Shown one piece after another: positions 973 through 44,184 of a stretch of 64,000 bases of DNA. The position numbers were made by a program, and so were the translations under genes. The stretch lies in the NCBI GenBank assembly GCA_005110385.1, contig DUDT01000012.1:84600-148599 (forward strand), written 5' to 3'. Every line of letters begins with the position of its first letter. Position 1 is the first letter of the stretch. This DNA is from Candidatus Melainabacteria bacterium. GTDB taxonomy: Bacteria; Cyanobacteriota; Vampirovibrionia; LMEP-6097. A model generated the notes under the pieces. The model made no database searches. It was given only the letters and a program-made list of their open reading frames with translations, and had not been told where the DNA came from.

Positions 973-995
973 TAAAAGCTCAAAGGTGAATTTTT

Positions 996-2789: not shown

Positions 2790-2822
2790 AAAGATTTTTT
2801 TTCTTTAATTTAAAAATACGTA

Positions 2823-19372: not shown

Positions 19373-19385
19373 TACTGCTGTAGCA

Positions 19386-19721
19386 TCAATGAAGGTAAAT
19401 GTATCTGAAATTATATTTTGTTTTCTTATGTTCTGTTAGGCGAAATCCACAAAAATATTTTGCACAAACATTTTCTTTAAGAAATCTTTCCATCTCTCTG
19501 TCTGAATGATTTTCAGCTTGCTGCAAAACTAACATTTTCAAAGCAGATTCTACGGGATATGCTTTTTTCCCTGAATTGCTTGAATAAATCGATTTAATTC
19601 CCTTTGCTAATGACTCAAAATCTACTAGTTTTAATAGTTTCCTATATGCATGATCTTTTGGAACTAAATTCTCTAAAAGCTCCGAATGAAAATCTAATTG
19701 AAAAGACTCGTTACTAAACAT
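19386..19721 (-). CDS. IS5-family transposase, N-terminal (InsH/DUF772-like) part
   Basis: LVPKDHAYRKLLKLVDF and YFCGFRL motifs typical of the transposase N-terminal domain; ends one frame away from the DDE part. Confidence 0.65.
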   Translation of the reverse strand: MFSNESFQLDFHSELLENLVPKDHAYRKLLKLVDFESLAKGIKSIYSSNSGKKAYPVESALKMLVLQQAENHSDREMERFLKENVCAKYFCGFRLTEHKKTKYNFRYIYLH

Positions 19722-23695: not shown

Positions 23696-24112
23696 TTAAT
23701 TGATCAAATACCGAATATGTCTATAAAATTGACTACTTAAAATGCTGCCTAGCACTGCTCTCTCGACTTCTAGCTCTTTAATGATCTTAATAAAAACATC
23801 TTTTAATTGTATAAGATCGGAGTTAATTATATTCCAAACCAGCTCAGCATCTATGCCTCTGTAATTATGTGAAAAGATATTGCGCATACCGACTATATTA
23901 GTCCAAGATATTTCAGGATGGCGGTCTTTTAGATTGTCGTCTAAGTTTTTAACTTCTTCCCCTATGGCTATTAGTAAATTAGCTGTAGCATTAAAATCTT
24001 TCTGATCATTAGCCCAAAGAAAATCACTATATGATTTATATTCACTAGAATAGATAAGTATTTTTTCTATAGCTTCTAGTATAGTAAGGCTAGATATAAG
24101 ATTTTTATTCAA
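23696..24112 (-). CDS. hepT: HepT-like (DUF86) toxin of a nucleotidyltransferase-type TA pair
   Basis: RNIFSHNY fits the Rx4HxY HEPN motif; 138 aa; overlaps the upstream MNT gene by 8 nt. Confidence 0.8.
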   Translation of the reverse strand: MNKNLISSLTILEAIEKILIYSSEYKSYSDFLWANDQKDFNATANLLIAIGEEVKNLDDNLKDRHPEISWTNIVGMRNIFSHNYRGIDAELVWNIINSDLIQLKDVFIKIIKELEVERAVLGSILSSQFYRHIRYLIN

Positions 24113-24416
24113 TTATAATCTTCTCCATCTCAATCCCCATCAGGATAATAGGATTTAAAAACTCTGGGTGATAATAGACTAGGTCTATAGGTCGCTTATC
24201 TAATAGCTCAGATAATTCATCTTTAGCATTTATATAATTACTAAGAGTTTTAAATTCAGACGAAAGCTTCACTGCTATATCTATATCGCTGTTTTCATTT
24301 TCAGAATTCTTAGCGAAAGAACCGAATAGCATAATCTCACTAAAGCCATATTTTTCTTTTAGGTAAGGCTTTTTAGTACTTAGTGTTTTTAAGATTTTCT
24401 CTTTAGAGAGAGTCAT
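24105..24416 (-). CDS. mntA: MntA-like minimal nucleotidyltransferase antitoxin
   Basis: LFGSFAKNSENENSDIDIAV fits the GSx(n)DxD nucleotidyltransferase motif; 103 aa. Confidence 0.8.
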   Translation of the reverse strand: MTLSKEKILKTLSTKKPYLKEKYGFSEIMLFGSFAKNSENENSDIDIAVKLSSEFKTLSNYINAKDELSELLDKRPIDLVYYHPEFLNPIILMGIEMEKIIIE

Positions 24417-24474: not shown

Positions 24475-25316
24475 GGCTCTTTACTTGCCGGGTGCTTTTC
24501 CGCACTCGACTTTTACAGATAAGATTAATGTTTCAATCATCAAGGCAACAATTAAAAACAAAAAAGCTAAACCGCAAGGGTCTAGCTTTTTCGTTTGCAT
24601 AAATGGTGCGCCTGGATAGATTTGAACCATCGAAGCAACCAGTGCGAGTTAAAGTCTCTAGTCCGCCACCAATCGGGATTCTTTAGATGTAAAAGCTTCG
24701 CTTTTACGGCGGGGTGCTTTTCCGCACTCGACTTTTACGGACAAGATGAATGTTTCAATCATCAAGGCAACGATTAAAAACAAAAAAGCTAAACCGCAAG
24801 GGTCTAGCTTTTTTGTTTGCATAAATGGTGCGCCTGGATAGATTTGAACCATCGAAGCAACCAGTGCGAGTTAAAGTCTCTAGTCCGCCACCAATCGGGA
24901 TTCTTTAGATGTAAAAGCTTCGCTTTTACTTGCCGAGTGCTTTTCCGCACTCGACTTTTACGGACAAGATGAATGTTTCAATCATCAAGGCAACGATTAA
25001 AAACAAAAAAGCTAAACCGCAAGGGTCTAGCTTTTTTGTTTGCATAAATGGTGCGCCTGGATAGATTTGAACCATCGAAGCAACCAGTGCGAGTTAAAGT
25101 CTCTAGTCCGCCACCAATCGGGATTCTTTAGATGTAAAAGCTTCGCTTTTACTTGCCGAGTGCTTTTCCGCACTCGACTTTTACGGACAAGATGAATGTT
25201 TCAATCATCAAGGCAACGATTAAAAACAAAAAAGCTAAACCGCAAGGGTCTAGCTTTTTTGTTTGCATAAATGGTGCGCCTGGATAGATTTGAACCATCG
25301 ACCAATCGGTTAAAAG
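24475..25316. repeat. 222/223-bp tandem array (about 3.8 units); each unit begins with the 3'-terminal 30 nt of tRNA-Lys (45 nt in the last copy)
   Basis: TGGTGCGCCTGGATAGATTTGAACCATCGA at 24604, 24826, 25049 and 25272; units are near-identical and each contains three hairpins. Confidence 0.9.
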
Positions 25317-25415
25317 GTAAGTCCCCCAAAGCCATTATAGGCTTATAACCTAGCTTTCAAGCTTTCAGATAACCTAAATTTCTTGCGTCTTGCGCCTTGA
25401 ATAAAGGAGTAAGAA

Positions 25416-26531
25416 ATGAACTATTTAAGCACCCTTGAGGTCTCTAAAGATTTAGGAATTCCTAAGCGAACTGTGCAAAGCTACTGTAAAGAAGGTTTTT
25501 TACCTGCATTAGTTAGTTTAAATAAAGGGAAGCCTTGCTATAAAATTGAAGCTCATAGCTATCTGAACTGGAAAAATAAAAATTTCAAAGGTATCAAAAG
25601 AGGTAAATTTAGTAAGCATACTTCTAGCGACAGAGAGATAGTTATAGATGATCTGAAAAGCCTAGCTCAAATCTGGTTAGAGTGGTGTGCTTCAGGTAAG
25701 CTTACAGGTAAACCACTAGGTAAACGAACTATAGAGATTTATGAATATTACTTCACTCTTTATATAAAGGGTTTAGGGAAGTATCCTTCTAAGCCTTTAA
25801 TTTCAGTAGATAATCTTCGTAATGTGCTTGGCTCTTATCAGCCACAGAACTACAGCACTAAGAGAAATATCTACGATGCGATTATGAGTTTTACTAAATA
25901 TTTAATTGAGTTAGATAAATTCAGCCCAGAGATTCGTAATAAGTTAAAAGCACTAAAACCTAAGAGATATTTACCAGCTAAAAAAACTTCACTTAATGAA
26001 ACTCAATTAAAGACTATGATAGCCGCCTGTAATGAAATGAAAACTAATTACTATGGAAGGTTAAGTAATAAAGTGATAGTAGTTTTCCTTGCTAATACTG
26101 GTCTTAGAGCCTTTGAGTTTTGTAAGCTCAAGCTAGAGGATATAAACCTAGAAGCTAAAAGAGTATATGTAAGACTAGGGAAAGGTAATAAACCACGTGA
26201 AATAGGTATTAATACTGAGACCTATGAATTACTACTAGAATATCTTAAAGCTAGGCTTTCTTTTGATTCTGAATATTTTTTCTTAAATAAAGATGGAAAA
26301 CCCTTTACAGTAGATAGACTGAATAAGAAAATATCAGGATTAGCTAATAAATTAGGCTTTAAAGGGATAAGCCCGCATAGCCTTAGAAGGTCCTTCGTAA
26401 CTATAAATGCTGCGAAAGGCAGACCATTAAACCATCTTAGGATAGCTTGCGGTCATGCTGATTTAAGCACTACTCAAGGCTACTGTATGACTAGCGTTGA
26501 TGAGGTCGTAGCTGCTATGAGGGAGTGGTAG
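25416..26531 (+). CDS. int: tyrosine recombinase / phage-type integrase
   Basis: TGLRAFEFCKLKLEDI (Arg I), HSLRRSF (HxxR), GHADLSTTQGY (His-Tyr); N-terminal HTH-like MerR/excisionase-type segment. Confidence 0.85.
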   Translation: MNYLSTLEVSKDLGIPKRTVQSYCKEGFLPALVSLNKGKPCYKIEAHSYLNWKNKNFKGIKRGKFSKHTSSDREIVIDDLKSLAQIWLEWCASGKLTGKPLGKRTIEIYEYYFTLYIKGLGKYPSKPLISVDNLRNVLGSYQPQNYSTKRNIYDAIMSFTKYLIELDKFSPEIRNKLKALKPKRYLPAKKTSLNETQLKTMIAACNEMKTNYYGRLSNKVIVVFLANTGLRAFEFCKLKLEDINLEAKRVYVRLGKGNKPREIGINTETYELLLEYLKARLSFDSEYFFLNKDGKPFTVDRLNKKISGLANKLGFKGISPHSLRRSFVTINAAKGRPLNHLRIACGHADLSTTQGYCMTSVDEVVAAMREW

Positions 26532-26540
26532 GATTAAATT

Positions 26541-27341
26541 ATGGAAAATAAGAGAACATATTTTTTTGTTGATGAATCTGGAGATCTCTCTCGGTTTGAC
26601 AAGAAAGGTCGCTCATTATTAGGTGTAGAGGGAGTTTCAAAAACTTTTATGCTTGGCTCACTAGAAGTCTTAGAACCCATAGAGGAAATTATCAAGAAGA
26701 TGGAAGAGCTAAGAGCAGACCTGATTAAAGATCCGTGTCTATTGAGAACACCCTCTTTAAAGAAAACTAAGTTATGTTTCCATGCTAAAGATGATTGTGC
26801 TGCTGTTAGAAGAGAAATGTTTAAGATTCTTAAGGATATGAAAGCTAGGGTTAGAGTAATGGTTCGCCGTAAATCTGAGCTAATAAGATTATCTAAGCAT
26901 TCTTTTGAACTGAATAAAGTAAAAGTGTCAGAAGCAACTATCTATTCTTCTATGGTTTCACGCTTATTTAAGCCACTGTTACACAAAAATTCATATAACC
27001 ATATTTTATTTTCCCAACGAGGGAAAACCTTTAATACCGAGTCTCTTCAAAAGGCTATAGAAATAGCTAAGGATAACTGTTACCATGACTGGGGAATTAA
27101 AAACGATAATATTATTACGATAGAGCATTCTAGCCCTAGTAATCATATAGGTTTGCAGATTGTTGATTACTATCTCTGGGCATTAAGCCGCTTATATGAA
27201 CAAGATGATGATTCATACTTCAATTATTTAAGAGATAAATATAGTTTGATCTGGGATCTGGATGATAAAACAAAAAAAGACTGTGGGGTCTATTACACAC
27301 AGAAAAACCCAATATCGTTAGAAAAAATAAAAGAGCTGTAG
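26541..27341 (+). CDS. DUF3800-like protein
   Basis: N-terminal YFFVDESGD and later QIVDYYLWAL resemble DUF3800; starts 9 bp after the integrase stop. Confidence 0.55.
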   Translation: MENKRTYFFVDESGDLSRFDKKGRSLLGVEGVSKTFMLGSLEVLEPIEEIIKKMEELRADLIKDPCLLRTPSLKKTKLCFHAKDDCAAVRREMFKILKDMKARVRVMVRRKSELIRLSKHSFELNKVKVSEATIYSSMVSRLFKPLLHKNSYNHILFSQRGKTFNTESLQKAIEIAKDNCYHDWGIKNDNIITIEHSSPSNHIGLQIVDYYLWALSRLYEQDDDSYFNYLRDKYSLIWDLDDKTKKDCGVYYTQKNPISLEKIKEL

Positions 27342-27783
27342 GCTAGGTTCGAGTGTCAGTGACTCTCTTACACACGGCACGAGGCCGACGTTCACCTACA
27401 ATATGTATAGTACCACATTATGCGAAGTTTTAAACATGAAATTACAGTCTAGGTAAGGATGAATAAGCATATATAGTACAAATCTGAAAAAGGTTTTTAT
27501 ATCGCTCGGGCATTTATGCGTTTTTAGAAAAAGTCACGTAAGCAGCACAAGCAAAGCCTATTAGGTTAAAAGTAAAAAAGAATGTCAAGATAGCAGCTTC
27601 TGGAGACATATACATTAATTTACTACAATAAAATTTCTAATTAAAGTTACTTGCCCCAAGGGGGGCTTTTATATTTCTTATGCATTGGCTCTCGCTACTT
27701 GGGGGATTTTGAGGTTTTGCTGTAAAGCTTCGATTGTGTCCGTGATTTTATTTGATAATTCAAAAGATATGAGAGCTAACTTA

Positions 27784-28137
27784 TTAAAACCTTGGTCCAA
27801 TAAATCTAAGAACTGAAAAACGCAACAAAGAGATAACGAACCAGAACCCCCAAATATAAAAATATATTGGCTCAGCTGCTGATAAGCTTACACCATTGAT
27901 TAACTTATAAACAAATGGATAAATTAAGGGAGTAAACTCTATAAATGGAATAAACATCGCAATAAATAAAACAGGGGTAGATATAATATATTTCCAAAAG
28001 CTCGTAATGCCTAAAACATTTTCACAAAAATCACCACTTAAGGTTATTGCTAAAATAAAAACCAAAAATGCAGAGATTTGATAACATAATGAAACCAAGC
28101 TAAGTAAAATATTAAAAGCAATTTTCATAGCTAACAA
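27784..28137 (-). CDS. small integral membrane protein, unknown function
   Basis: 117 aa with about 4 hydrophobic helices. Confidence 0.5.
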   Translation of the reverse strand: MLAMKIAFNILLSLVSLCYQISAFLVFILAITLSGDFCENVLGITSFWKYIISTPVLFIAMFIPFIEFTPLIYPFVYKLINGVSLSAAEPIYFYIWGFWFVISLLRFSVLRFIGPRF

Positions 28138-28200
28138 TTCTAGCCTAAATCTCTTAAGTGAAAAACATTTTTAAGTAGTAAGCCCTGTAAAATTGAATCA

Positions 28201-28470
28201 ATGCTTAGCCTATTCTCCTTACCCTTTTTATTACTAGCTCTATTCTTACCTTTCCCTTATGCCTACTATACTCTACTAAGATTTTTAGTAACTGCTAATT
28301 CTTTATGGCTATTACAGAAGATCTCAGTAAGTGAGGCTCATAGGTTTACTCTTCTCGCAATCGCTGTATTGTACAATCCTTTGATCCCTGTTCATCTGAA
28401 TAAGCCTATATGGAACGTGATTAATTTTTTGACTATATTGTATTTTGTTTATATTGGTTATAAGAAATAA
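28201..28470 (+). CDS. small integral membrane protein, unknown function
   Basis: 89 aa with about 3 hydrophobic helices; divergent from the 27784-28137 gene. Confidence 0.5.
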   Translation: MLSLFSLPFLLLALFLPFPYAYYTLLRFLVTANSLWLLQKISVSEAHRFTLLAIAVLYNPLIPVHLNKPIWNVINFLTILYFVYIGYKK

Positions 28471-28667
28471 AATTCACTTTTATCAATTTCAGGCTTATAA
28501 GTTGCTTAGTACGAATTTATAGATCTTGTGTGTAATTTTGGCAAGCAAGATCCTTTACAGGAAAGGTTTTTAGTGAAATTTGCTGCTGATTATTTTCTCT
28601 GTGTTCTATGTGTTTCCTCTCTCGTGATTTATTATGATGAGTATTAGATATAATCTGATTATTCATC

Positions 28668-29315
28668 ATGAGAATTTTAAGCTGTTTATTAATCTTATGT
28701 ATTTTTTTGAGTGCATCATGCTCTAAGCCTATTAATCCTGCTGAGAAGTTCTACAATAAAGGACGTTTAGCTTATTCAAAAAAAAATTATAAGGAAGCTT
28801 TTGAGTACTATAAAAAAGCTGCTGAATTAGGTGATGCTAAGGGAATGAAAAATTTAGCAAGAATGTATTTTTTGGGAGAATATGCAAAAGAGAATTATAG
28901 CGAATGTTTTAAATGGCTCAAAAGATCCGCTGAGTTAAGAGATCCTGATGCAATGTTTATTTTGGGGCTTTTTCATTATTACGGTTGGAAACCTGTTATT
29001 CAAGATCATGGAGAAGCTATTAAGTGGTTTAAACAATCAGCTGAGTTAGGTGATGATGAGGCAATGATGTATTTAGGAAGCATCTACTATGTTACTCAAG
29101 AGAATAATAAAGCTTTCAAGTACTATAAAAAGGCCGCTGAATTAGGTAACGCTAAGGCAATGTATGAGTTAGGGAATATGTATTATTTAGGAGATGGAGT
29201 ACTATGGAAAGATCCTAAAAAAGCTAAATACTGGATAAAAAAAGCTTACGAAGCTGGTAATAAAGATGCAGAAAAGGCTTGGAATTCTCTGGCATTATGG
29301 AGTGCGAGACTCTGA
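28668..29315 (+). CDS. Sel1-repeat (SLR) lipoprotein
   Basis: Lipobox LSASC, then about five repeats of the form A..W(F/Y)KKAAELGD..AM..LG.MY..G. Confidence 0.85.
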   Translation: MRILSCLLILCIFLSASCSKPINPAEKFYNKGRLAYSKKNYKEAFEYYKKAAELGDAKGMKNLARMYFLGEYAKENYSECFKWLKRSAELRDPDAMFILGLFHYYGWKPVIQDHGEAIKWFKQSAELGDDEAMMYLGSIYYVTQENNKAFKYYKKAAELGNAKAMYELGNMYYLGDGVLWKDPKKAKYWIKKAYEAGNKDAEKAWNSLALWSARL

Positions 29316-29465
29316 AGATAGTAAAATGCCCTAGAGAACAGTCTAGAGTTGTGGAAGTGTTAATTAACCTTAAGCTCTGTGCCGCCAGTCTGAGATTAAG
29401 ATTCAGGTAAATGAAAATATTGATTTGGTACACTTACAAATCTTTGTGACAGGCGTTTAAGAGTT

Positions 29466-29924
29466 TTACTCCTTTTTTACAACTACACATCCTGATAAAA
29501 GATCGTGCAAGCACTGTTTTTTATTGCTAAAGAAAAATAATATATAACCAATAAAGATGGTTAAAATATTAAGCCAGTTCAAGAAATATCTTAGACTTGC
29601 TGTAGCAAAACAAACCTGTGAACCATCTAAACTCAATATTTTAATTCGTAATATTCTCTGTCCAATTGTGGATTGGTTTTTACCACTTTGTAGCAGACCA
29701 TAGTAAAACCAAGCAATTACAAGACCTAGCATGTTCCATTGACTTTCGCTGAATTCTATACCGCTGACAATTTTGACAATTACTAATGGAATGACGACTA
29801 GCGAGAAACATAAAACGGCTATAATGATAAGATCAATTAATCTGGCTCCTAGCCTCTCTAAAAATGAAGCAAGCTGATATTCCGTAACCTCATTCTCATT
29901 CTCTATAGTTATAATTTTGTTCAT
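29466..29924 (-). CDS. RDD family membrane protein
   Basis: RLGARLIDLIII, three helices and a C-terminal HDLLSGCVVV, typical of the RDD domain. Confidence 0.65.
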   Translation of the reverse strand: MNKIITIENENEVTEYQLASFLERLGARLIDLIIIAVLCFSLVVIPLVIVKIVSGIEFSESQWNMLGLVIAWFYYGLLQSGKNQSTIGQRILRIKILSLDGSQVCFATASLRYFLNWLNILTIFIGYILFFFSNKKQCLHDLLSGCVVVKKE

Positions 29925-30107
29925 ATTAACAAAGACAGAGCTTAACCATTTCAGCTTATGTTTATGAGCTAAACGCTTCCTGATCCTATCATATTTCCCT
30001 GTAGCCTATGTATTCACCCCATAATTACCTACTGAATGGCGACATATTCCCACCCCTATAAGTTGTAAGTCGTAAAATTTAATAACTGACAACTGACAAA
30101 GCCCCCC

Positions 30108-31619
30108 TCATTTTTGCATTAACCTAACTAAAATCGTAGGTTCTCCATTATTTGATTTATTTTTCTCTTGCCTCAAATCAATTACTTTTAGGTCTCTGAG
30201 TGTATCTAAAGCTAAATTAAATTGCTCACGATTGCGGTCATAGCCTCTCAGGCTATTAGCTAAGCTATTAATTTTGACTTCATAGTCTTTTTTATCACGA
30301 AGTTTATTAACGATTTTTACAGCCATATTAAGCACGCTAGAGAGTTCACGATTGTTTAAAAATTTAATCGTAGTATCTTCAATGTATTGGACTAAGGTTT
30401 CAGCTTGAGTTAAGGTCTCAATAGAAATTAATCGAGAATCTCTAAAGCTGGATTCTAGGCAATGTAAAATCCCTGCGATTTTAAATAAAGCTTCTCGCCA
30501 ATAACGATCAAGGCAGCTTATCAAGACATCGTTATAACAAAATTTATTTTTTTTATATTTATAATCTTCAAAAATCACCTGCTCATAATGCTGCGTTGCT
30601 TCATTATCTAGTTTCAAAGTGATATTACTAGTGCTATATAAGCCAAAGCTCCACAAATCAATTAGCGTATGTTTTATCGGATCTAAGTTTAAGAGTTTTT
30701 TATTTCGCCTAGGGAAAGCTATAGGAGGTTTAGAGTTACTGCAATCTATCAAATTCAGTCTAGCAAAGAATCCTGAGCCTAGATCTTCATCACTTAAATT
30801 ATTAGATAAGCTCTTCGTAGTTATTGGACCTAAAATGGAAATTAAAGCTTTATTCGGTAAATTTAAGTTTTTGCTGCTCTTGTAACTTACTAAATTATTG
30901 GAAATATTTCCACCGTATAAGCTAATGAGTAACTCTTTTAGAGCAGGTACTTCCTTGACTTTTTTTAACATTATTGAGATTTCTTCATCTGTCGCCATCA
31001 ATCCATAGCTCATACCATCACTGAGCATCTCAATGATTCTCTCTAAGCTGGTAACTAAAGGGAAACTAATCATTTCATTAACTGGTGCTTTGGGTTCTTC
31101 CATCTCTTCGCCCTTTTCCTCAGCCTTTAGGAATTTTTTCATTTCTCGGTTATAGTGTTTCAGGTCTTTAGCATATTTTTCTTTAACTGGATTCTCTAGC
31201 TCTCGAATTAAATCTAATACAGGCTTAGCTCCAGTACTTTTACCACAGCCACTAGGTCCTATAGGAAGTATCCAAGTATTTAAAAATAGATCTGAGCTTG
31301 GACCTTCGACTATGACTTTATCTCTTAAGAAGGAACCAGCTATAGAGATAATTGGAAAAACAATAGCAGCGTTTGCAATTTGTGTTATAGAGTCTTCTCT
31401 GTCTAGAAGAGCTTTTAAGCATGGAGCTAATGCTTCTTTCTCTAGATTTAAAGCATTTTCCAAAGTTAGTGAAGCTATTTTTTGATTTATTTCATGTTCA
31501 CTGAAAAGCTTATTCTCAAGCGGGTTTAGAGCTTGTTTTTCTAGCTCTTGGATATATTTTCTTCTATCTCCTTCACTAAGTTTATTCATTTGATCATCGA
31601 TCCCTGATTTTTCCGACAT
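30108..31619 (-). CDS. P-loop NTPase, DUF3987/YfjI-like (mobile-element replicative helicase-like)
   Basis: Walker A GPSGCGKST, Walker-B-like LMATDE; 503 aa; adjacent to a Toprim-like gene. Confidence 0.55.
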   Translation of the reverse strand: MSEKSGIDDQMNKLSEGDRRKYIQELEKQALNPLENKLFSEHEINQKIASLTLENALNLEKEALAPCLKALLDREDSITQIANAAIVFPIISIAGSFLRDKVIVEGPSSDLFLNTWILPIGPSGCGKSTGAKPVLDLIRELENPVKEKYAKDLKHYNREMKKFLKAEEKGEEMEEPKAPVNEMISFPLVTSLERIIEMLSDGMSYGLMATDEEISIMLKKVKEVPALKELLISLYGGNISNNLVSYKSSKNLNLPNKALISILGPITTKSLSNNLSDEDLGSGFFARLNLIDCSNSKPPIAFPRRNKKLLNLDPIKHTLIDLWSFGLYSTSNITLKLDNEATQHYEQVIFEDYKYKKNKFCYNDVLISCLDRYWREALFKIAGILHCLESSFRDSRLISIETLTQAETLVQYIEDTTIKFLNNRELSSVLNMAVKIVNKLRDKKDYEVKINSLANSLRGYDRNREQFNLALDTLRDLKVIDLRQEKNKSNNGEPTILVRLMQK

Positions 31620-31630
31620 AAATACTCCTT

Positions 31631-32275
31631 TTAAATTGTCATCTCTTTGGGTCTTGCACCTGCTCTATATAAAAATATTGAAAACTCATCTAAGGCTTTT
31701 CGCACATTAGGCTTGGTTTTGATATCATCATCAAATAATAAAAATACTGTTCTATTCTCTAAAACGAAGCATGATAGATCTTTCTTGAAGTCTTCAGAAC
31801 ACCAGCCCCATACACCTGGTATGGAGATGACAGCTTTACCAAGACTCGCTAAGCATGAAGCTTTCTTCTCACCTTCAGTGAAAATGATTGGAATTGAAGA
31901 ATCTTTCATGACTTCCTGCCAGCGTGCAAACTCTAAGAATGGATAAAAGGGAACTAGAGGGACACCTTTTTTCTGATGATATTTGATTTCAAAAGGTTGC
32001 TTAAGATTTTTGTGGCGATAAAATCGAATCCTGTAGCTTACGGGGTCTAGCATTGGAACTTGCCAGCCCCAGAAATCATCTTCTTGATAGCCGTCTAGAG
32101 CTATTCGTTTCATAGATAAACCTGAATTGAATAATTCTCTTAAGATATACGTGGCTGAGATTCTTGAATAGACAAGTCTTTCAATCTCTTTTTCATTTAG
32201 AGATGAAATATCAATAATGGTTTTATTAAATTTATTATTCATAGTATTTTCTTTTATTGCCTGTAACTCATACAT
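31631..32275 (-). CDS. DUF3854/Toprim-like protein
   Basis: PIIFTEGEKKASCLAS (TEGxxKA) and FLLFDDD acidic motif. Confidence 0.5.
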   Translation of the reverse strand: MYELQAIKENTMNNKFNKTIIDISSLNEKEIERLVYSRISATYILRELFNSGLSMKRIALDGYQEDDFWGWQVPMLDPVSYRIRFYRHKNLKQPFEIKYHQKKGVPLVPFYPFLEFARWQEVMKDSSIPIIFTEGEKKASCLASLGKAVISIPGVWGWCSEDFKKDLSCFVLENRTVFLLFDDDIKTKPNVRKALDEFSIFLYRAGARPKEMTI

Positions 32276-32428
32276 GTACGTGTTTCACTAATCCTTTCCT
32301 TGAAAGGTTTTAGATTGTTTCTAAAATAAAATTTGCTATAATGAAGCTACTCAATTTTCAAACAGCAATCTAGGGCAGCTTTAGCTGCCTTTTGATTAAG
32401 AAGAGTCTAGTTTATAAATCATTCCTAA

Positions 32429-33375
32429 TTACCATTCCTTTTGACTCTCTAAGACCTCTTCGAGGCATGGGTTCACATAACTTTGTGTGGTTAATATACT
32501 TTGATGCCCTGCGATCATTTGCAGGTAAGGCATAGGTGCGCCCTTGCTTGCATAATGGGTAAGGCAGCCCCTTCGGAGGCTATGCCATGAACCAGAAAGC
32601 CCAGCTTTTTGAGTAAGTACCTTAAGCCTTTTCTCTAAGCGGTCCCGCTTTAATGGTCTGCCATCTGGTAATAAAAATAATTTATCTTCATTCATCGTTT
32701 CTACCTCTCATTTCAATATAGTTTTTTAAATCCTCTTTTAAAGCCTTATTAATGGCTACCCAGCGATTTTTACCGCCCTTACCGTTAAATATAAGAATTT
32801 TCCCTTCATCAAGAAAAACATCACCGAGATTTAAATTACAAATTTCCGAGACCCGAAGCCCAGTATAAAAAGCGAATTTTAAAAGAATCTCATTTAAATT
32901 CTTTGATGCTTGATTAGTTTTAAGTCTCTGATTGGCTTCTAATAGTAGATTTAATTCTTTCTCTCTAAAAGTAGGTCTGCGTATATCTTTATGGCGTTTG
33001 ATTTTTATACTTCTTAATCGCTCAAGAATATTATCGCTATCTCTAAGCATTGAATACCCCCTGTCTTATTAAAAACTTTGCTAAGCTAATAGCCGCTTCT
33101 TTACAGTGTTTACGGCTAGAAAATTGTTCGGGTTTATGAGCTTCTATAGCTTGAACTGTAGCCTCGTATAGATTAGAATAATCTGCTTCTAATAAATGCC
33201 AGATTTTATTCATCGCATTTAAATAGATGCGTATGCAGTCAAAGCTAATAGCTCTGCCGTATGGTTGTGAGCCATTTTGCATGGCAGCCACCCAGCTATA
33301 TACGATTTCTTGGTACTGCTCTGGTACTTTCTTCAAAAGATTTCCATAAGCGTGGCTAGTTAATGACTTGGTCAT
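32429..33375 (-). pseudogene. tyrosine recombinase split into three ORFs by two frameshifts
   Basis: 33375-33043 N-terminal SAM-like domain; 33050-32688 YTGLRVSEICNL (Arg I); 32695-32429 HSLRRGC and GHQSILTTQSY. Both junctions are 8-nt overlaps (ATGCTTAG, ATGAATGA). Confidence 0.75.
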
Positions 33376-33753
33376 ATCTTTATTTCCTATTTATATTAGG
33401 GGGTTACTCAGCCTTTGCTAAATGCCCCGCTAATCTATTTGTATTATATTGGCTTATTTTCAAAGCCCTTAATTCCATAAGCGTTGCTGGTTAATGACTT
33501 GGTCATATCTTCATTTCCTATTCTTGGCTTATTATAGTCTCTACTTTTTAATTAAATCGCAGAATAGGTATTGATGTGTAAAACATTAAAGCTCTTACAG
33601 TAGCTATATGGCCTCTGAGTAGAAAAGGTGCTTTATCTGCCTCTTACCCATAATCAAATTCTAACAGGGCTAATAAAGCTAGAGATACTAGGTATAATCT
33701 AAGAAGGTGAAGCGCAAGACGCAAGTTTTTTCACCTTCTGGAATCTTTATAAA

Positions 33754-33828
33754 TGGTGCGCCTGGATAGATTTGAACCATCGACCAATCGGTTAAAAGCC
33801 GAGTGCTCTACCGCTGAGCTACAGGCGC
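33754..33828 (-). tRNA. tRNA-Lys (anticodon UUU)
   Basis: Reverse complement GCGCCTG-TA-GCTC-AGCGGTA-GAGC-A-CTCGG-CTTTTAA-CCGAT-TGGTC-GATGG-TTCAAAT-CTATC-CAGGCGC-A-CCA folds as a cloverleaf. Confidence 0.92.
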
Positions 33829-34057
33829 TCATACAAATAGTTAATATATCATAAGTTCAAGCCTTATTTTAAAGCCAAGCTTTTTTTTATATTAATTTCA
33901 AAATCTATTCTTATTAATAAGGAAGACTGTTACGGAAAATTCTCTATTGAAAATTTTTGGGGAAAAATGACCCCTTAAAATTTTCCATTCTAAAGTTTAT
34001 TATAAAAACCCTAGTTAAATATTCTGAGTTCCAATCACAAAGGGGTTTATAGAAAAA

Positions 34058-35986
34058 ATGAATAAGATGAGAAATAGAGATGGCTGGGGAGGAAGGATTC
34101 GAACCCTCGAATGGCGGGACCAAAACCCACTGCCTTACCACTTGGCGACTCCCCAAAAATTTGAACATAATAATAATACTTTATTTTTTGGATTCCTGTC
34201 ACTTGGCTTCTTAATTTTTTTATGTTTCACTTTTAATAAAGCGGCAGCACAGCTGCCACCAAGCTTGTCTATTTTAGAGCTGAATAGGCGAAGAGTGGTT
34301 AATGCTAGTTTGAGTCCGCTAACGGCGGTTCTAGCTACAGATGAGCAATTGATTTATTCTCTGAACAGTAGGATTTTTGTAGATGAATCTTCACTGCCAA
34401 ATATTAATCTTCTAGATGAAAATGAGAGCTTTAAAGTAAATCGTATTTATCAAAATGCTACTGATATCTATTTCGCAACTAATGTGGGGCTGATTAGGAA
34501 TCAGCAGCGAATATTTACCAAAACTGGGGTTAATGATATTAGTTTTACTAAAGATAAAATTTATCTAAGTACGGATCTCGGGCTTTATGCTTCTGATATT
34601 TCGTCTCTACGCTGGGAGCTTGTAACTAAGGCAAATCTGCGGATTCTACAATGCAAACCTTCACTTAAATCTAAGAACCTTTTTTATTTACTCACGGTAA
34701 ATGGTTTTTATACTTTTAATTCTAAAAAGAATCTTGTGGTGAAAGTTAATCAGGGATTAGTGTTTAATTCTGATTCTGAATTAAAGGGGCGGCTCGAAAT
34801 TTTAAAACACAAGCAGCTTAAGGAAGAGCTGATTTATCTTGCTTTAAATAATGCTGTTTATAAGCTTGATGGTGCTAAAAAAAGCTGGCGTCGTTTAACT
34901 GACAAGGGTTTGGTTTTTGATCAAGATTCGCAGATGCAGGTGGTGGATATTTTCTATAAAGATGATTATTTATTTTTGGTTGCGAGTACTGGATTGTTTT
35001 ACGCTAAGTTAGGCTTAGGAAATGAAGTCACAGAGTGGCATAAGGTGAGTTCGGCGGAATTTAATTTAGATGAAAATTTTTTAGAAGGTTTTACTGCTTC
35101 TAGTTTTTCTAAGCAAGATAAAAGCATCTCTTTGTTTATAGGTAATTTTAGAGGCGATTTATATCAGCTCAGGCTTGGAGATTCAGGGCATGACCTAGAA
35201 ATTAGGGATGGACAGCAGTCCTCTGTGGCTCTCCTTGAGCCGATTGCATTGTCGTCAGCTCTAAATAAGGATCATGAGATTAAGAGTGAAGAAAAAACGA
35301 CTCAAGATATTATAAGTCCTAGTGAAAAGCCTGATGCGTTAGATTCGAAGGAGAAATTAAAGCTGATTTTTTCTTTAGAACCCACTATTCAAGAGACTCA
35401 AACTAAGGCTCTTCAGTTTTCGGGGATTCCTTCTGGGATGCAGTTTGGGGCTTATAAGCGGCAGGCTCGTTTAAGGAATGTTCTGCCACAGATCGATACA
35501 TCTTTCGATAATTCTGATTATGCTCTAAGTAGCTTAGAGACTCGTGGTTCAGACCAGTATGATTCGGCTGATAGTAGTATAAATAGTTCTTTAGATAAAA
35601 ATCGCAAAGCTTCTGCTGATAATGAGTTTAATACAGGCTTTCGCTTTACTTGGCATTTAGATCGTTTAATATATGATCCAGAGATTATAGACATAGTAAA
35701 TAGCGCAAGAGTTTCAGCGAATATTCGTGAAAACCTTCTTACTGAGCTAACTCAGATTTATTTCCAGAGGAAAAATCTTTTATCTGAGCTTATATCTAAT
35801 CCCTTCTCTAGGACTATGACTCAGAAGTTTAAATTGCAGGAACTTACTGCTGATATAGATGCTAGAACGGGTGGCTGGTACAGTCTTGCCTTGAGAAGTC
35901 GATTCAGGGAGGCTGCTGCGCGAAACACAGTGAGTGATTTGGAAAAAATATTAGAGGAGCTAGATATTAACTATGAAAATATTTAA
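34058..35986 (+). CDS. secreted repeat (beta-propeller-like) protein; true start uncertain because the first ~98 nt overlap tRNA-Gln
   Basis: Signal-peptide-like LFFGFLSLGFLIFLCFTFNKAAAQ begins just after the tRNA; recurring IYxxTxxGLY-type blades; 642-codon ORF. Confidence 0.55.
   Translation: MNKMRNRDGWGGRIRTLEWRDQNPLPYHLATPQKFEHNNNTLFFGFLSLGFLIFLCFTFNKAAAQLPPSLSILELNRRRVVNASLSPLTAVLATDEQLIYSLNSRIFVDESSLPNINLLDENESFKVNRIYQNATDIYFATNVGLIRNQQRIFTKTGVNDISFTKDKIYLSTDLGLYASDISSLRWELVTKANLRILQCKPSLKSKNLFYLLTVNGFYTFNSKKNLVVKVNQGLVFNSDSELKGRLEILKHKQLKEELIYLALNNAVYKLDGAKKSWRRLTDKGLVFDQDSQMQVVDIFYKDDYLFLVASTGLFYAKLGLGNEVTEWHKVSSAEFNLDENFLEGFTASSFSKQDKSISLFIGNFRGDLYQLRLGDSGHDLEIRDGQQSSVALLEPIALSSALNKDHEIKSEEKTTQDIISPSEKPDALDSKEKLKLIFSLEPTIQETQTKALQFSGIPSGMQFGAYKRQARLRNVLPQIDTSFDNSDYALSSLETRGSDQYDSADSSINSSLDKNRKASADNEFNTGFRFTWHLDRLIYDPEIIDIVNSARVSANIRENLLTELTQIYFQRKNLLSELISNPFSRTMTQKFKLQELTADIDARTGGWYSLALRSRFREAAARNTVSDLEKILEELDINYENI
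34081..34155 (-). tRNA. tRNA-Gln (anticodon UUG)
   Basis: Reverse complement TGGGGAG-TC-GCC-AAGTGGTAA-GGC-A-GTGGG-TTTTGGT-CCCGC-CATTC-GAGGG-TTCGAAT-CCTTC-CTCCCCA-G-CCA; has the U1-A72 pair typical of tRNA-Gln. Confidence 0.9.
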
Positions 35987-37220
35987 AACTAATTATAATA
36001 AATCGAGTTATAAACTTGGACAAAGCTTGTTTGCCTGCTTGCTTGTTCTTGATCTGATGCTTGTTGGGTTATTTTCACCAGCTTGCTCAAAGATAATCCC
36101 TTTTAAACCAAATCTGCAACTGCTTAAAGATTTTATGGCTAAAGGTGAGACTATGACTCTGAAAGGCACTGGTTTAATTCAGAATTTAGACACTGCTTAT
36201 AAAATTAGGTTAATGGCTGTCACTGATACTAGCTTATTACCTATCGACCTAGAGATACTTTCTGTAGAGGCTGGGGAACTAAATTCTGTAATCCCGGAGG
36301 ATATTCCTTATGGTGATTATAAAATAGAGTTTCAGCTAAGAAGTCGCTATCTAAAAACCCCGAAGCTGCTTTTAGCGGATATTCTGAAAATTAGACCTAA
36401 AGCCGTCACTGACTTTAGCTTAAAGGCTGATGTTTTATTAAAAGCAGAGAATTTAACAGCTCTTCTCAGTGGTGCTAAGGCAAATGATTTTAAATTAATC
36501 CTAAATTTAAATGACGTAGATGAGGAAGTGGACTCTATCTTAGAGCAGGCAGATAGTTTAAGTCTTGATGCGAATCTGAGTAGAGAGGCTCTAAAACAGA
36601 AAGTCATAGGGCGTATTTTAAAATTAGGTTTAAATACAGCACAGGTTTATACCTTGGAAGATGGCTTTAAAAGCTTGCTTACGACTTCAGTAAATTTTTA
36701 CTATTTACCTCTGGATGTCTTTCAGCAAGAGCTATTTGTTTCTTTAAATCCTTTTTCTGTAGTGATGAAGCAGAATTTTACAAATAAATCCTTTGATGTC
36801 AGTTCCGTGATAAAAAAAGAGCAGCAAGGCTTGACTACAACATACTATTTAAAAGCTTTTGAAAAGCCTTATTATTTAAGTAGAAGTATAGAAGCTTCTG
36901 CACTTGGTATTGAGAAGATGCGAGTTATTGGTGATGAGTTCGCTGTCATTAAGAATTTAGGTATTAATTCTTTTAAATTAAGAAAATGTAGGCTCGCAGA
37001 TTCGTTGAGAATTAGATTTGAGTTTACTCAAGATATAGAGCTTTTGCCAGAGGCAGCGGTTAGCGTGAATGGTGATCTAGGCTTAAATAATACTGGAGCT
37101 GATTTTTTAAGCTTAAGCTGTGAAGTTGATCAAGGCTCAGGGCTTAAATATGTAATTCTAGACGAGTTTTCTTATTCTAAGACGAATGAAGAGGGTTTTG
37201 CTGTGAGGGATTTGCTATGA
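35973..37220 (+). CDS. hypothetical lipoprotein
   Basis: Lipobox-like FSPAC after a hydrophobic helix; overlaps the upstream gene by 14 nt (operon-like). Confidence 0.55.
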   Translation: MKIFKTNYNKSSYKLGQSLFACLLVLDLMLVGLFSPACSKIIPFKPNLQLLKDFMAKGETMTLKGTGLIQNLDTAYKIRLMAVTDTSLLPIDLEILSVEAGELNSVIPEDIPYGDYKIEFQLRSRYLKTPKLLLADILKIRPKAVTDFSLKADVLLKAENLTALLSGAKANDFKLILNLNDVDEEVDSILEQADSLSLDANLSREALKQKVIGRILKLGLNTAQVYTLEDGFKSLLTTSVNFYYLPLDVFQQELFVSLNPFSVVMKQNFTNKSFDVSSVIKKEQQGLTTTYYLKAFEKPYYLSRSIEASALGIEKMRVIGDEFAVIKNLGINSFKLRKCRLADSLRIRFEFTQDIELLPEAAVSVNGDLGLNNTGADFLSLSCEVDQGSGLKYVILDEFSYSKTNEEGFAVRDLL

Positions 37221-37227
37221 TTGATGT

Positions 37228-37836
37228 ATGAATAATTTGACCTTATTTGCGTTACTGTTTTCTATATGTGCTGCTTGTAATGCTGAAATGAAAATTTTTA
37301 TAAATGATAAAAAACCTGCGGTACTAGCACCGACTCAAGCTAGACCACCAGTTAAAAAAGTAGTTAAGGAGAAAAAGAAAATGAGCACTGAATTTAAAAT
37401 AGGGGATTTAGCTCCAGATTTCACTTTAAATGACCAAAACGGTAAAGCACAGACTCTATCTAGTTATAAGGGTAAGTTTGTACTTGTTTATTTCTATCCT
37501 AAGGATGATACTCCAGGATGTACTATAGAAGCTTGTTCTATTAGGGATAATGTTGCTCAGTTTTCGAAATATGATGTTAAAGTCTTTGGTATTAGTGCTG
37601 ACGACGTAGCTAGTCATAAAAAGTTTATTACTAAATATAAGTTACCTTTTGATTTACTTGCTGATACTAATAAAACAGTAGCTAAGCTCTATGGTGCTGA
37701 TGGACTTTTTATTAAAAGAATCTCTTTCTTGATTGATAAAGAAGGAAAGTTTGCGAAATTATACCCAAGTGTGAATCCTAGTCAGCATGCTGGGGAAATA
37801 CTTGCGGATTTAGCTTCGCTTACTCAGCGTATATAG
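37228..37836 (+). CDS. bcp: peroxiredoxin Bcp (thiol peroxidase) with an N-terminal signal/lipoprotein-like extension
   Basis: FVLVYFYPKDDTPGCTIEAC peroxidatic Cys motif; N-terminal LFALLFSICAAC; alternative start M52 at 37381. Confidence 0.85.
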   Translation: MNNLTLFALLFSICAACNAEMKIFINDKKPAVLAPTQARPPVKKVVKEKKKMSTEFKIGDLAPDFTLNDQNGKAQTLSSYKGKFVLVYFYPKDDTPGCTIEACSIRDNVAQFSKYDVKVFGISADDVASHKKFITKYKLPFDLLADTNKTVAKLYGADGLFIKRISFLIDKEGKFAKLYPSVNPSQHAGEILADLASLTQRI

Positions 37837-37958
37837 GTACTGCTCGCAAACTCCAATTCCTGCGTTTTCGTCGTCTTCATGATCCTCATGTACTTCGAGT
37901 ACACTGCGGTCATTCGTCCTCCTCAGCCTTGTACTTGCACGTTCATTAACAGTCCCGT
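37836..37958 (-). repeat. ENAE-type miniature inverted-repeat element, long (123-bp) intergenic variant
   Basis: GGTACTGCTCGCAAACTCCAATTCCTGCGTTTTCGTCGTCTTCATGATCCTC + 37-bp extra module + CTCAGCCTTGTACTTGCACG...AACAGTCCC; its first base is the last base of the bcp TAG. Confidence 0.8.
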
Positions 37959-37988
37959 GGTATAATCCTCAATCAGATTACTTAATAA

Positions 37989-38702
37989 ATGTTTAGAATT
38001 TCAATTTTTTTAGTAGCATACTTATTAAGCGTAACTGGTCTTTTCGCTAAAGCTATAGGACCTAAAGACTATTTTGAAGGGCTGCTTTATAGTATTAGAG
38101 CTAATATAAGGCAGCAAGATAATTTTGCCTATTCAATTTTTTACACGCATCCAAATGCACGAAAAGCTTTATTAGAGCAGCATAATGCTAAAGCTAAATT
38201 ACTCACTGAATCACAAAAGCAGAAAAAAAATGATCCTGAAGATTTAGCAAAGGAATTAGAAGAGGATAAATATTGCGTTGTTAAAGCAATACCAACTTGG
38301 CACGATAGTCCTCTGTACAATGTTTTGGTCGTTCCAATTACTAATCAAACTGTACTTGGAGAAGTTAAATATTATTATTCTAATGCTCTTGAGATAGGGG
38401 ATCTAAAAATAGTCGATAAAAATAATAAAGAGCTAGAGTGTAAAGTCTTTAATAAGAGATACGTTGATTTAATGAATGAAGAAAATGTCCGTTATATAAG
38501 ATCTGTTTATAAGTGGGTTTATTATGGTGTTGATATTACCAAAAAGGCTATGGTAGCTGATTTTGATTTAGCCTGTGTAAATAAATTACAAAAACCAGAG
38601 CTGCTAGTAATTAGAGAGAAAAATTTACCTATAAAAAACTATTTGCAGCAAAATGGCGATGATATAAATAAAAAGATACTGCAAAGATTGTCTAGCTCTT
38701 AA
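37989..38702 (+). CDS. hypothetical secreted protein
   Basis: 237-codon ORF with an N-terminal signal peptide; no family recognised. Confidence 0.5.
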   Translation: MFRISIFLVAYLLSVTGLFAKAIGPKDYFEGLLYSIRANIRQQDNFAYSIFYTHPNARKALLEQHNAKAKLLTESQKQKKNDPEDLAKELEEDKYCVVKAIPTWHDSPLYNVLVVPITNQTVLGEVKYYYSNALEIGDLKIVDKNNKELECKVFNKRYVDLMNEENVRYIRSVYKWVYYGVDITKKAMVADFDLACVNKLQKPELLVIREKNLPIKNYLQQNGDDINKKILQRLSSS

Positions 38703-38728
38703 AAAGTTTTTAAATTGAGATATTTAAT

Positions 38729-39784
38729 TTAAGTAAGTTTAGGAAAAGTATTCAGGGAGTAATTATGAAATTGCTCCCTATTTTTTTCATTTATGCTCAT
38801 AAATTTAAAATATCCAGCACTGGCTATCATGGCAGCATTATCGGTGCAGTATTTTAAATTGGGCATGTGGCAACTTGGGGGCTGTAGCCTTGAAACTACA
38901 TCTTGTGCAGTGGTCTCATTTAGCTTTACAGAAGAAAATCTTTCTTGAAAAACTTTTCTAATGTGTGAATTAGCTGAAACGCCCCCTGCGATTACGACTG
39001 TATCTAAATTTGTTTCAATAATAGCTTTATTTATTTTTTGGTAAAGTGTCTCTGCGATACAGTTCTGGAAGGCGAAGGCGATATCAGCTTTATCTTCTGT
39101 AAATTTTTCTTCGCCGATTTTTTCTTTAAGTCTTAAGACTGCTGTTTTAAGACCAGAGAAACTAAATTTAAAACCTTCGACATTAGAGATCGGGAATTTA
39201 TAAAGCTTGTTCTCAGAACCAGTTTGAGCTAATTTATCGAGCTCTGGTCCTCCGGGGTAGTCTAAGTCTAATAACCTTGCGGTTTTATCGAAAGCCTCTC
39301 CTACTGCATCATCTATGCTAGAACCTAGTATTTCCATTTCATTATAATCATTTACTGTGATAATCTGTGTATGACCGCCACTGACTAACATGCAGAGAAA
39401 AGGTGGTTCTAAACTGCTTTCTAAGAAATTAGAGCAGATATGACCATGTAAATGATTTACTGGAATTAACGGCTTATCATAAATCCAAGCTAAAGTCTGA
39501 GCTACATTAACACCAATTAACAGTGAACCCATAAGACCTGGTCCTACTGTGACAGCTATCGCATCTATGTCTTCGAAATTTAGCTTTGCTGTTTTTAAAG
39601 CACTGTCTATAACTGTATGAATTTTTTCGTAGTGTAGCCTAGAAGCATACTCTGGTATAACGCCGCCCCAATCTTTATGTTCATTGATTTGGCTGTATAG
39701 TACGTTAGATAAGACTTCTCTACCGTTTTTAACTATACTAGCAGCACTTTCGTCGCAGCTGCTTTCTATTCCCAAGATGAGCAT
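38729..39784 (-). CDS. tsaD: tRNA N6-adenosine threonylcarbamoyltransferase TsaD
   Basis: MLILGIESSCDESAASIV, NHLHGH metal-binding motif, GGVSAN. Confidence 0.9.
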   Translation of the reverse strand: MLILGIESSCDESAASIVKNGREVLSNVLYSQINEHKDWGGVIPEYASRLHYEKIHTVIDSALKTAKLNFEDIDAIAVTVGPGLMGSLLIGVNVAQTLAWIYDKPLIPVNHLHGHICSNFLESSLEPPFLCMLVSGGHTQIITVNDYNEMEILGSSIDDAVGEAFDKTARLLDLDYPGGPELDKLAQTGSENKLYKFPISNVEGFKFSFSGLKTAVLRLKEKIGEEKFTEDKADIAFAFQNCIAETLYQKINKAIIETNLDTVVIAGGVSANSHIRKVFQERFSSVKLNETTAQDVVSRLQPPSCHMPNLKYCTDNAAMIASAGYFKFMSINEKNREQFHNYSLNTFPKLT

Positions 39785-39879
39785 TCTATTTATTCTAGTT
39801 TATCTGTGATATTTTGATCATTTAAAAAAATCAGTATTTTATTTAGTTATAAGAGGAGATCCTATGTAAAATGATTTAA

Positions 39880-40770: not shown

Positions 40771-40839
40771 TTAGTCTTATTTATTACTGAGTGGGATAGC
40801 ATAAATTTTAATCAAGATGGCATACTTAATATTTAAGAA

Positions 40840-44166: not shown

Positions 44167-44184
44167 AGATTCTTCAGAAAGGTT

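Follow-up and report, generated by a model that had tools for sequence, protein, structure and literature searches.

We identified a mobile island in the 3' part of the tRNA-Lys(UUU) gene of a Candidatus Melainabacteria bacterium (assembly GCA_005110385.1, contig DUDT01000012.1, positions 84,600 to 148,599; this stretch of 64,000 nucleotides is called the window, and coordinates refer to it unless a contig is named). The integrated form, the excised circle and the empty site are all present as contigs in public assemblies, and the island is therefore mobile. It is likely to be a site-specific integrative element, active at present in a Caenarcaniphilales (Melainabacteria/Vampirovibrionia) bacterium, that probably replicates itself. 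In principle such an element is ordinary; less ordinary are its two-recombinase layout, a conserved split recombinase and an array of putative secondary attachment (att) sites.

The window lies on contig 12 of a genome of 1.91 Mb in 25 contigs that is 88.5% complete (G000). Thirty genomes of the bacterial family (G-numbers) were searched with int_A, the distal recombinase gene of the island, and with a homologue of int_B, the tRNA-proximal recombinase gene; matched loci were then fetched and annotated (Gxxx:Cn denotes genome and contig, L-numbers denote fetched loci or contigs). G001, G003, G004 and G006 belong to the same genus as the window, and G012, G016 and G018 to other genera. Homologues of the two genes are called A-type and B-type, and the arms of attP are named P (from att to int_A) and P' (from att to int_B). 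Approximately 90 protein clusters are related to int_A and all their named members are from Melainabacteria/Caenarcaniphilales, a lineage that apparently comes from inland-water metagenomes. A literature search found no paper on mobile elements of Caenarcaniphilales.

Integrated form, excised circle and empty site

The tRNA-Lys(UUU) gene is intact (33754-33828, minus strand; ARAGORN; Rfam tRNA, 70.2 bits), with a tRNA-Gln gene 250 nt upstream of it (ARAGORN, Rfam). The 3' 45 nt of the gene lie inside the proximal att copy (33749-33798), which is perfectly repeated as the distal att copy (25267-25316) at an att-to-att distance of 8,482 bp. Each copy consists of tRNA positions 32-76, beginning at C32 in the anticodon loop and ending with the encoded CCA, followed by the 5 nt TTTAT. 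The original prediction, made from the letters of the window, had described a perfect 45-bp direct repeat of the 3' part of tRNA-Lys up to the anticodon loop; the perfect match and its extent into the tRNA hold, and the length is 50 bp. To the left of the distal copy follow GC, a 41-nt terminator hairpin, which is the native terminator of the tRNA, and a tandem array. The island thus has the target-duplicating direct repeats and the intact target gene of a site-specific integrative element. The integrated form is present in at least ten further assemblies. The two junctions were recovered, one or both in each of several independent assemblies from JGI, ENA and Logan, with 99.2-100% identity, and the repeat is therefore not an assembly artefact. 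The G+C content, which had been proposed as a check, is approximately 0.31-0.37 inside the island and 0.32-0.39 outside; without a contrast, composition neither supports nor refutes a foreign origin.

A look-up of the exact int_A protein led to a circular contig (L096; ENA ERZ27271690 k141_31967, assembled by MEGAHIT, 8,623 bp). It is 100% identical to window positions 31064-33798 followed by 25267-31204, and is thus a circular permutation of the island in which the 50-bp repeat is present once, as attP. The first and last 141 nt of the contig are identical, and 8,623 - 141 = 8,482, the att-to-att distance. The k-mer length of 141 far exceeds the 50-bp repeat, so that the loop closes only if reads span P'-att-P. 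The gene order of the contig is the first part of DUF3987, DUF3854 and int_B, then int_A, DUF3800 and the following genes up to RDD and the rest of DUF3987. In the circle, attP is located between the divergently transcribed recombinase genes, with int_A 99 nt and int_B 373 nt away.

The empty site is represented by a 24-kb contig (L111; ERZ27271690 k141_171686) that matches window positions 33749-44220 at 100% identity over 10,472 nt. In L111 the tRNA-Lys gene is followed without interruption by the terminator that the window has to the left of its distal att; this is an unoccupied attB. The circle with its single attP and the unoccupied attB, both of which the original prediction had named as its test, are thus present at the contig level in one metagenome assembly (ERZ27271690). 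Together with differences in att site and cargo between genomes of the same genus, they bear out the predicted site-specific integrative island in tRNA-Lys. An exact-pattern scan of JGI metagenome contigs gave no match for the attP junction and none for the empty-site junction, the ENA empty-site contig being one base off the latter pattern (TTTAC versus TTTGC). A context look-up of a tRNA-Met-type integrase returned no circle. In G018 the synteny of the left flank ends after the terminator plus approximately 95 nt, so that no clean cross-genus empty site was obtained.

The region downstream of tRNA-Lys also differs between strains in its other contents. In the part of L111 at 347-3757, an ISL3-family transposase is inserted approximately 60 nt beyond the tRNA-Lys terminator, and the left flank has DUF1016/YhcG and N6_Mtase genes in place of an MNT/HEPN (HepT-like) pair that in the window is located directly left of the array (23696-24416; the nucleotidyltransferase matches PADLOC PDC-S09, 8.8e-23). 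These differences make the region a strain-variable hot spot. The window further contains, at 18809-19721 and also at 1752-2016, 13085-13124 and 37907-37945, fragments of IS5/DDE_Tnp_1 transposases together with short sequences matching the L111 ISL3 ends, which recur at the contig ends of relatives. These repeats probably break metagenome-assembled genomes around this locus.

The tandem array (24480-25266) lies outside the island and consists of units of 222/223 bp, each composed of a 35-nt tRNA 3' fragment (the last 30 nt plus TTTAT), the 41-nt terminator hairpin and approximately 145 nt. A unit resembles a tandem duplication from the tRNA T arm to approximately 187 nt downstream. The tRNA fragments are located at 24599-24633, 24821-24855 and 25044-25078. 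There are four units in the window, three in L095 (JGI 3300042294), two in L097 (JGI 3300020536) and none in L111, the native flank of which ends approximately 18 nt before the first array fragment.

In G001 and G004 the element is inserted at an array-type tRNA fragment. The order in G001 is tRNA-Lys, terminator, one 222-bp unit, a 33-nt tRNA fragment, the P' arm and int_B (88% identity), and a second contig of this genome runs from DUF6804 to int_A (97%), a 50-bp att and the terminator, without DUF3800. In G004 the same fragment and the P' arm are joined straight to DUF6804, with int_B through Sel1 missing, and another element, which contains an int_B-like gene, lies behind the true tRNA-Lys. 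G003 and G006 contain further mosaics of the element. Since the G001 and G004 insertions hold only the last 33-35 nt of the tRNA, and a site consisting of the T arm only is combined with a full 50-bp distal junction, the crossover would fall within these 33-35 nt, in an attP with 50 nt of tRNA identity. The array fragments would then serve as secondary att sites in relatives. Another arrangement was seen in G003:C334 (RFQS01000051.1; L027 6669-10799), where one end carries a frameshifted copy of int_A (97.6% identical) and the other a fused DUF3854-DUF3987 gene (731 amino acids) and a large serine recombinase gene (527 amino acids) that overlaps tRNA-Val(UAC) with its 3' end. Between these two ends there is no tRNA-Lys att copy; L027 could represent a separate element at tRNA-Val, or the product of a rearrangement.

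Genes, arms and proposed mode of action

The P arm (25317-25415, plus strand) contains a 14-nt motif, CTTGCGTCTTGCGC, at 25382-25395, 20 nt before the start of int_A. int_A (25416-26531, plus strand) encodes a tyrosine integrase of 371 amino acids with an N-terminal, excisionase-like HTH_17 domain (PF12728) and a Phage_integrase domain (PF00589, 1.7e-28) that is complete (profile positions 3-166 of 172) and places the protein among the tyrosine recombinases. The gene is intact and reads inward, as had been predicted. Its translation contains the motifs TGLRAFE, GKGNKPR, HSLRRS and GHADLSTTQGY with the catalytic residues R, K, HxxR, H/W and Y, and it matches phrog_1 (integrase) in PHROGs and XerA/XerC-like proteins in a PDB sequence search. 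The ratio of nonsynonymous to synonymous substitution rates (dN/dS) is 0.09 against G001, and in relatives the gene is always approximately 100-130 nt from an att copy.

At the other end of the island, the P' arm (33376-33748, minus strand) contains the motif GCGCAAGACGCAAG at 33712-33725, inside a hairpin with a 10-bp stem, as well as a 50-nt duplicate of the 5' end of int_B (33473-33522 versus 33342-33391). CTTGCGTCTTGCGC and GCGCAAGACGCAAG form an inverted repeat across the two arms. Counting the 14-mer together with its reverse complement, the 1.91-Mb genome holds only two occurrences, both of them in the arms of the island, where approximately 0.01 are expected by chance. int_B (32429-33375, minus strand) is a second Phage_integrase gene in three open reading frames (ORFs), called as proteins of 110 (piece 1, 33375-33043), 120 (piece 2, 33050-32688) and 88 amino acids (piece 3, 32695-32429). 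Each is +1-shifted relative to the preceding one, with 8-nt overlaps, ATGCTTAG and ATGAATGA. The PF00589 domain is divided over two polypeptides, ORF2 covering profile positions 3-87 and ORF3 positions 94-167, and the catalytic R, K, HxxR, H and Y motifs are all present.

Next to int_B are genes for a DUF3854 protein (Toprim-like; 31631-32275, minus strand; PF12965, 1.9e-19) and a DUF3987 protein (P-loop; 30108-31619, minus strand; PF13148, 1.1e-25; PHROG helicase/primase matches), which together (30108-32275) form a putative replication module. The remaining genes encode a DUF3800 protein behind int_A (26541-27341, plus strand; PF12686, 1.3e-11; PADLOC DUF3800_VII, 2.7e-14), a membrane protein of 117 amino acids without a Pfam match or known family (27784-28137, minus strand), a divergently transcribed small membrane protein of 89 amino acids (DUF6804; 28201-28470, plus strand; PF20619, 5.2e-16), a Sel1-repeat protein with an N-terminal signal-like segment (28668-29315, plus strand; five repeats, Pfam Sel1, 6.1e-38) and an RDD-family membrane protein (29466-29924, minus strand; PF06271, 6.4e-23; weak PADLOC match to the C-terminus of PD-T4-6). 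DUF3800 is a candidate defence-associated gene and is absent from the 97%-identical copies in G001 and G003. The Pfam searches confirmed every gene that had been named in the original prediction. A non-coding stretch (27342-27783) separates DUF3800 from the membrane protein genes. Its core (27472-27710) is 94-95% conserved in G003, G004 and G006, although the neighbouring G006 integrase is only 62% identical in protein, and its end is marked by a GCCCC-AAGG-GGGGC hairpin followed by a T-run (27653-27676). Rfam gave no match to the stretch; the core may act as an origin or regulatory region, or encode a small RNA. A promoter and terminator scan together with Rfam gave nothing further on the island.

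The island is located in the 3' part of tRNA-Lys(UUU), with the tRNA rebuilt from the 45-nt copy that the element itself brings, and recombination between the two 50-bp att copies yields one circle of 8,482 bp with a single attP and restores tRNA-Lys beside its own terminator. int_A is the candidate integrase, as its HTH_17 and catalytic domains and its tight linkage to att in relatives suggest, with a predicted crossover between the T arm and the 3' end of the tRNA. int_B would be a working recombinase whose two or three cistrons are translationally coupled, and would belong with the DUF3854-DUF3987 module, for example in resolving multimers of the replicating circle or in assisting excision. 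DUF3800, the two small membrane proteins, Sel1 and RDD would be exchangeable cargo. We thus read the element as modular, with an att-int_A integration module, an int_B-replication module and cargo that move as one unit. Because packaging and conjugation genes are lacking, transfer between cells would depend on outside help in the form of phage particles, vesicles or DNA uptake.

Two-recombinase layout and competing readings

Several observations weigh against this explanation. A circular contig like L096 would also result from a tandem duplication in head-to-tail orientation. The left side of L111, with its ISL3 insertion and restriction-modification genes and without the array, differs from the window, so that L111 is a sister strain and not a proven excisant. 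The arrangement in G001 could also have come from unequal exchange within the array (followed by excision) instead of fresh integration. The replication function is deduced from domain families, and a PDB sequence search returned no relative for DUF3987 or DUF3854. Finally, A and B are modular and do not co-evolve: tRNA-Met islands with 99-100% identical A have B only 27-78% identical, G004:C15 and G021:C5 have B with a primase-helicase gene beside a tRNA and no A within 6-12 kb, and A stands alone next to tRNA-Thr and tRNA-Asn genes in G011:C4 and G018:C34. Co-evolution of A and B had been considered on the basis of a Mantel r of 0.50 and was rejected, as this value was driven by near-identical pairs and the identity matrices show module shuffling.

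The layout itself recurs across the family. Besides this island, B is proximal and A distal in a tRNA-Lys element of G012 (G012:C28; A 52% identical; 12.97 kb, 48-bp perfect repeat) and in tRNA-Asn elements of the window's own genome (G000:C4; 11.9 kb, 47-bp repeat) and of G016 (G016:C5; 51-bp repeat). The order is reversed, with A proximal and B distal, in a tRNA-Lys element of 19.2 kb with a 60-bp repeat (G023:C4) and in tRNA-Met elements (G016:C4, G023:C24 and G023:C53). In all of these islands the A and B genes read inward and would diverge from attP in the circle; the exception to this layout is G043:C83, where B and A stand back to back, 3.2 kb apart. The gene beside B, in some cases with one or two small ORFs in between, is of a replication type, namely DUF3854 and DUF3987 here and in G043, and a PriCT/D5_N/DUF5906 primase-helicase (481-786 amino acids) in five islands. 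The smallest elements (tRNA-Met, approximately 5.3 kb) contain only A, the primase-helicase gene, an ORF of 181 amino acids and B. Inverted repeats in the arms are also present in relatives, with 12-13 nt in G000:C4 and G012:C28, the former reading on by eye to approximately 21 nt, and a weak one of 9 nt in G016:C5. For the tRNA-Met, A-only and B-only islands, the att search did not find a distal copy.

The second island of the window's own genome (contig 4, 89991-101954; L075 3992-15955) is located at tRNA-Asn(GUU) and reads tRNA, a two-cistron int_B-like gene, a primase-helicase gene (PriCT/DUF5906, 785 amino acids), cargo, an int_A-like gene (49%) and the perfect 47-bp att, with a further 32-nt tRNA fragment 145 nt beyond the distal att. 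The anticodon arms of the two targets are nearly alike, TCGGCTtTTAACCGATtGGTC in tRNA-Lys(UUU) (window 33754-33828) and TCGGCTgTTAACCGATcGGTC in tRNA-Asn(GUU) (L075 3992-4066). Lys- and Asn-targeting integrases are intermixed by identity, the A-type protein of the tRNA-Asn island G016:C5 being 59% identical to int_A, above two integrases of tRNA-Lys sites, which suggests that switching between the two targets is easy in this lineage. A reverse transcriptase gene (RVT_1), in place of a primase-helicase gene, follows B and one ORF at L079 5688-6959 (G018:C34; 5e-21) and at L083 4883-6205 (G023:C24; 8e-23), and in G018 a DUF3800 gene (48% identical) again comes after the integrase gene.

The island could instead be a composite in which a B-type replicative element (int_B, DUF3854/DUF3987 and cargo) was fused with a small A-type element (int_A and DUF3800), the att copy between them was lost and the two now excise together, an option that the original prediction had mentioned as two fused elements. 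Such a composite might have arisen by tandem integration at tRNA-Lys, and the reassortment of A and B and their separate occurrence next to tRNAs fit it, as do the identities between G000 and G001 of 97% in the int_A region, 88% in the int_B region and approximately 90% in the chromosomal flank, which point to modules with different histories. A weak att-like stretch in the non-coding gap (27549-27572) was considered as the lost internal att and was not convincing, matching at only 17 of 24 positions. A search for an internal att in this island, G000:C4, G016:C5 and G023:C4, four complete islands, found none that was convincing. Moreover, the whole element is found as one circle, its outer arms share a genome-unique 14-nt inverted repeat that is not expected of unrelated elements, the inward orientation is kept in either order of A and B, with A distal in five islands and proximal in four, and the minimal 5.3-kb elements would leave an A element consisting of an integrase alone. 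We consider a fusion unlikely on these grounds, and the recurrent layout without an internal att looks like a design and not a chance fusion.

A second alternative, which we likewise regard as unlikely, is that the island is a phage satellite resembling P4 or the phage-inducible chromosomal islands (PICIs), induced and packaged by a helper, with the circle as the induced form. It shares with them its small size, an integrase gene beside att, a tRNA 3' end that the element restores and a replicative form that is circular, and a primase-helicase (PriCT/D5_N/DUF5906) is present in related islands. The combination of integrase, primase/helicase-type module, small size and tRNA site is also that of satellites and PICI-like tycheposons, as the tycheposon preprint describes them (bioRxiv 10.1101/2020.12.28.424599), and the circular form dominates in one sample. 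Against this, Pfam and PHROGs searches of the island ORFs detected no capsid, tail, terminase (small subunit included), head-size-redirecting, cos/pac-related or helper-sensing gene. The absence of capsid, tail and conjugation genes stated in the original prediction was thereby upheld. The island further has two recombinases and not one, and no helper phage is known for this lineage. Pattern scans of IMG/VR contigs with int_A and DUF3987, which detect close relatives only, returned no relatives. With integrative and conjugative or mobilizable elements (ICEs, IMEs) the island shares site-specific integration and excision by a tyrosine recombinase and a circular intermediate, and it differs from them in that no relaxase, origin-of-transfer (oriT)-linked, coupling-protein or type IV secretion gene was detected by Pfam and PHROGs.

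As a third alternative, int_B could be a dead gene and its split ORFs leftovers beside one working integrase, in line with its description as frameshifted in the original prediction. Two frame changes do break a domain that is normally one polypeptide, we know of no natural split tyrosine recombinase, and the second split is rare, being confined to two or three protein clusters in a set of 5.8 billion proteins. The pattern of substitution, however, argues against decay. Comparison of G000, G001 and G003 gave dN/dS values of 0.22-0.32 (dS 0.11-0.23) for piece 1, 0.08-0.16 (dS 0.19-0.22) for piece 2 and 0.02-0.06 (dS 0.46-0.94) for piece 3. As the second split is common to these three genomes, piece 3 has evolved under strong constraint in its own frame. 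The same 110/120/88-amino-acid calls in more than 10 independent assemblies exclude a sequencing error. All three ORFs are open in G000, in G001 and in the homologue of G016:C5, another genus, in which both splits are present and piece 3 is 71% identical; they are open in G003 too, where the first junction is fused. The +1 splits recur in homologues that are 45-70% identical, the first split in at least seven that are 45-60% identical (G000:C4, G004:C15, G004:C60 and G023:C4, and, as paired search matches suggest, also G003:C83, G017:C185 and G006). In more distant homologues the gene is a single ORF (311-345 amino acids). Each downstream ORF has an ATG overlapping or close to the upstream stop, with Shine-Dalgarno-like GAGG/GGGGG motifs before the ATGs of the G000 and G001 junctions. 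We therefore consider a dead int_B improbable. A recombinase made from coupled cistrons is the most economical reading of these features; int_B may work as a multi-chain enzyme, and a programmed +1 shift would be a less economical alternative.

An assembly artefact or a tandem duplication in the chromosome as the source of the circular contig, with the island no longer mobile, is very improbable: only one such contig was found and the JGI scans yielded no other attP or attB junction, but the repeat is far below the k-mer length, so that a de Bruijn graph needs reads spanning P'-att-P to close, the same assembly holds the unoccupied site with its 100% identical flank, and relatives carry the element at different att copies.

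Related systems and significance

A Prochlorococcus tycheposon, a first guess from the low G+C content and the partial tRNAs, was ruled out by the Caenarcaniphilales/Melainabacteria lineage and the tRNA-Lys target. Pathogenicity island 1 of Vibrio (VPI-1) is approximately five times larger than this island. It resembles it as a transfer-messenger RNA (tmRNA)-linked island with direct repeats of approximately 30 bp and a gene for a mobility enzyme at each end (vpiT and intV), both annotated as mediating integration and excision (PMC7574455). VPI-1 differs in carrying virulence genes and no replication module, and in that VpiT is described as a transposase and not as a second tyrosine integrase.

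The tycheposons of Prochlorococcus are tRNA-targeting elements of a few to 20 kb with partial tRNA flanks, composed of a small integration module, a primase/helicase replication module and cargo, most of them without capsid or conjugation genes (Hackl et al., bioRxiv 10.1101/2020.12.28.424599). Their partial tRNAs and remnants pile up beside the tRNA into a variable island, circular or excised forms are present in environmental data, and the seven sites listed there are those of Pro, Ser, Ala, Thr, Arg, Met and tmRNA (bioRxiv 10.1101/2020.12.28.424599). The island described here has the same combination of integrase, putative replication module and cargo with partial-tRNA flanks and without capsid or conjugation genes, a likeness in make-up and in behaviour at a tRNA hot spot. 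It differs in its target, as tRNA-Lys(UUU) is outside the seven sites listed in the preprint; its relatives are at tRNA-Asn and tRNA-Met, and the A-only islands at tRNA-Thr and tRNA-Asn. It differs also in its host, which belongs to a non-photosynthetic sister lineage of Cyanobacteria, and in having a second, often split tyrosine recombinase at the opposite end, a feature not described for tycheposons in the available part of the text.

A bolder and rather doubtful possibility is that these islands form a distinct family of tRNA-integrating replicons in which attP is flanked by two divergent recombinases and the naturally split B, composed of two or three translationally coupled chains, is required for recombination together with A, or instead of A at secondary sites that consist of the T arm only. 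If true, this would be the first multi-chain tyrosine recombinase found in nature, as well as an integration system with two recombinases.

This island documents a family of elements that is mobile at present in the non-photosynthetic sister group of Cyanobacteria. The integrated, circular and empty-site states are all recoverable from public data, and the exact definition of attP, attB and the arm motifs makes them amenable to plasmid tests. The tycheposon- or P4-like lifestyle of integrase, primase-helicase and cargo at tRNA hot spots is extended beyond marine picocyanobacteria. The conserved split recombinase under purifying selection raises the question whether a tyrosine recombinase can act as separate chains in nature, which, if it can, would bear on recombinase mechanism and tool design. 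The array of partial tRNAs, as putative secondary sites, suggests how a tRNA hot spot may multiply its own targets.

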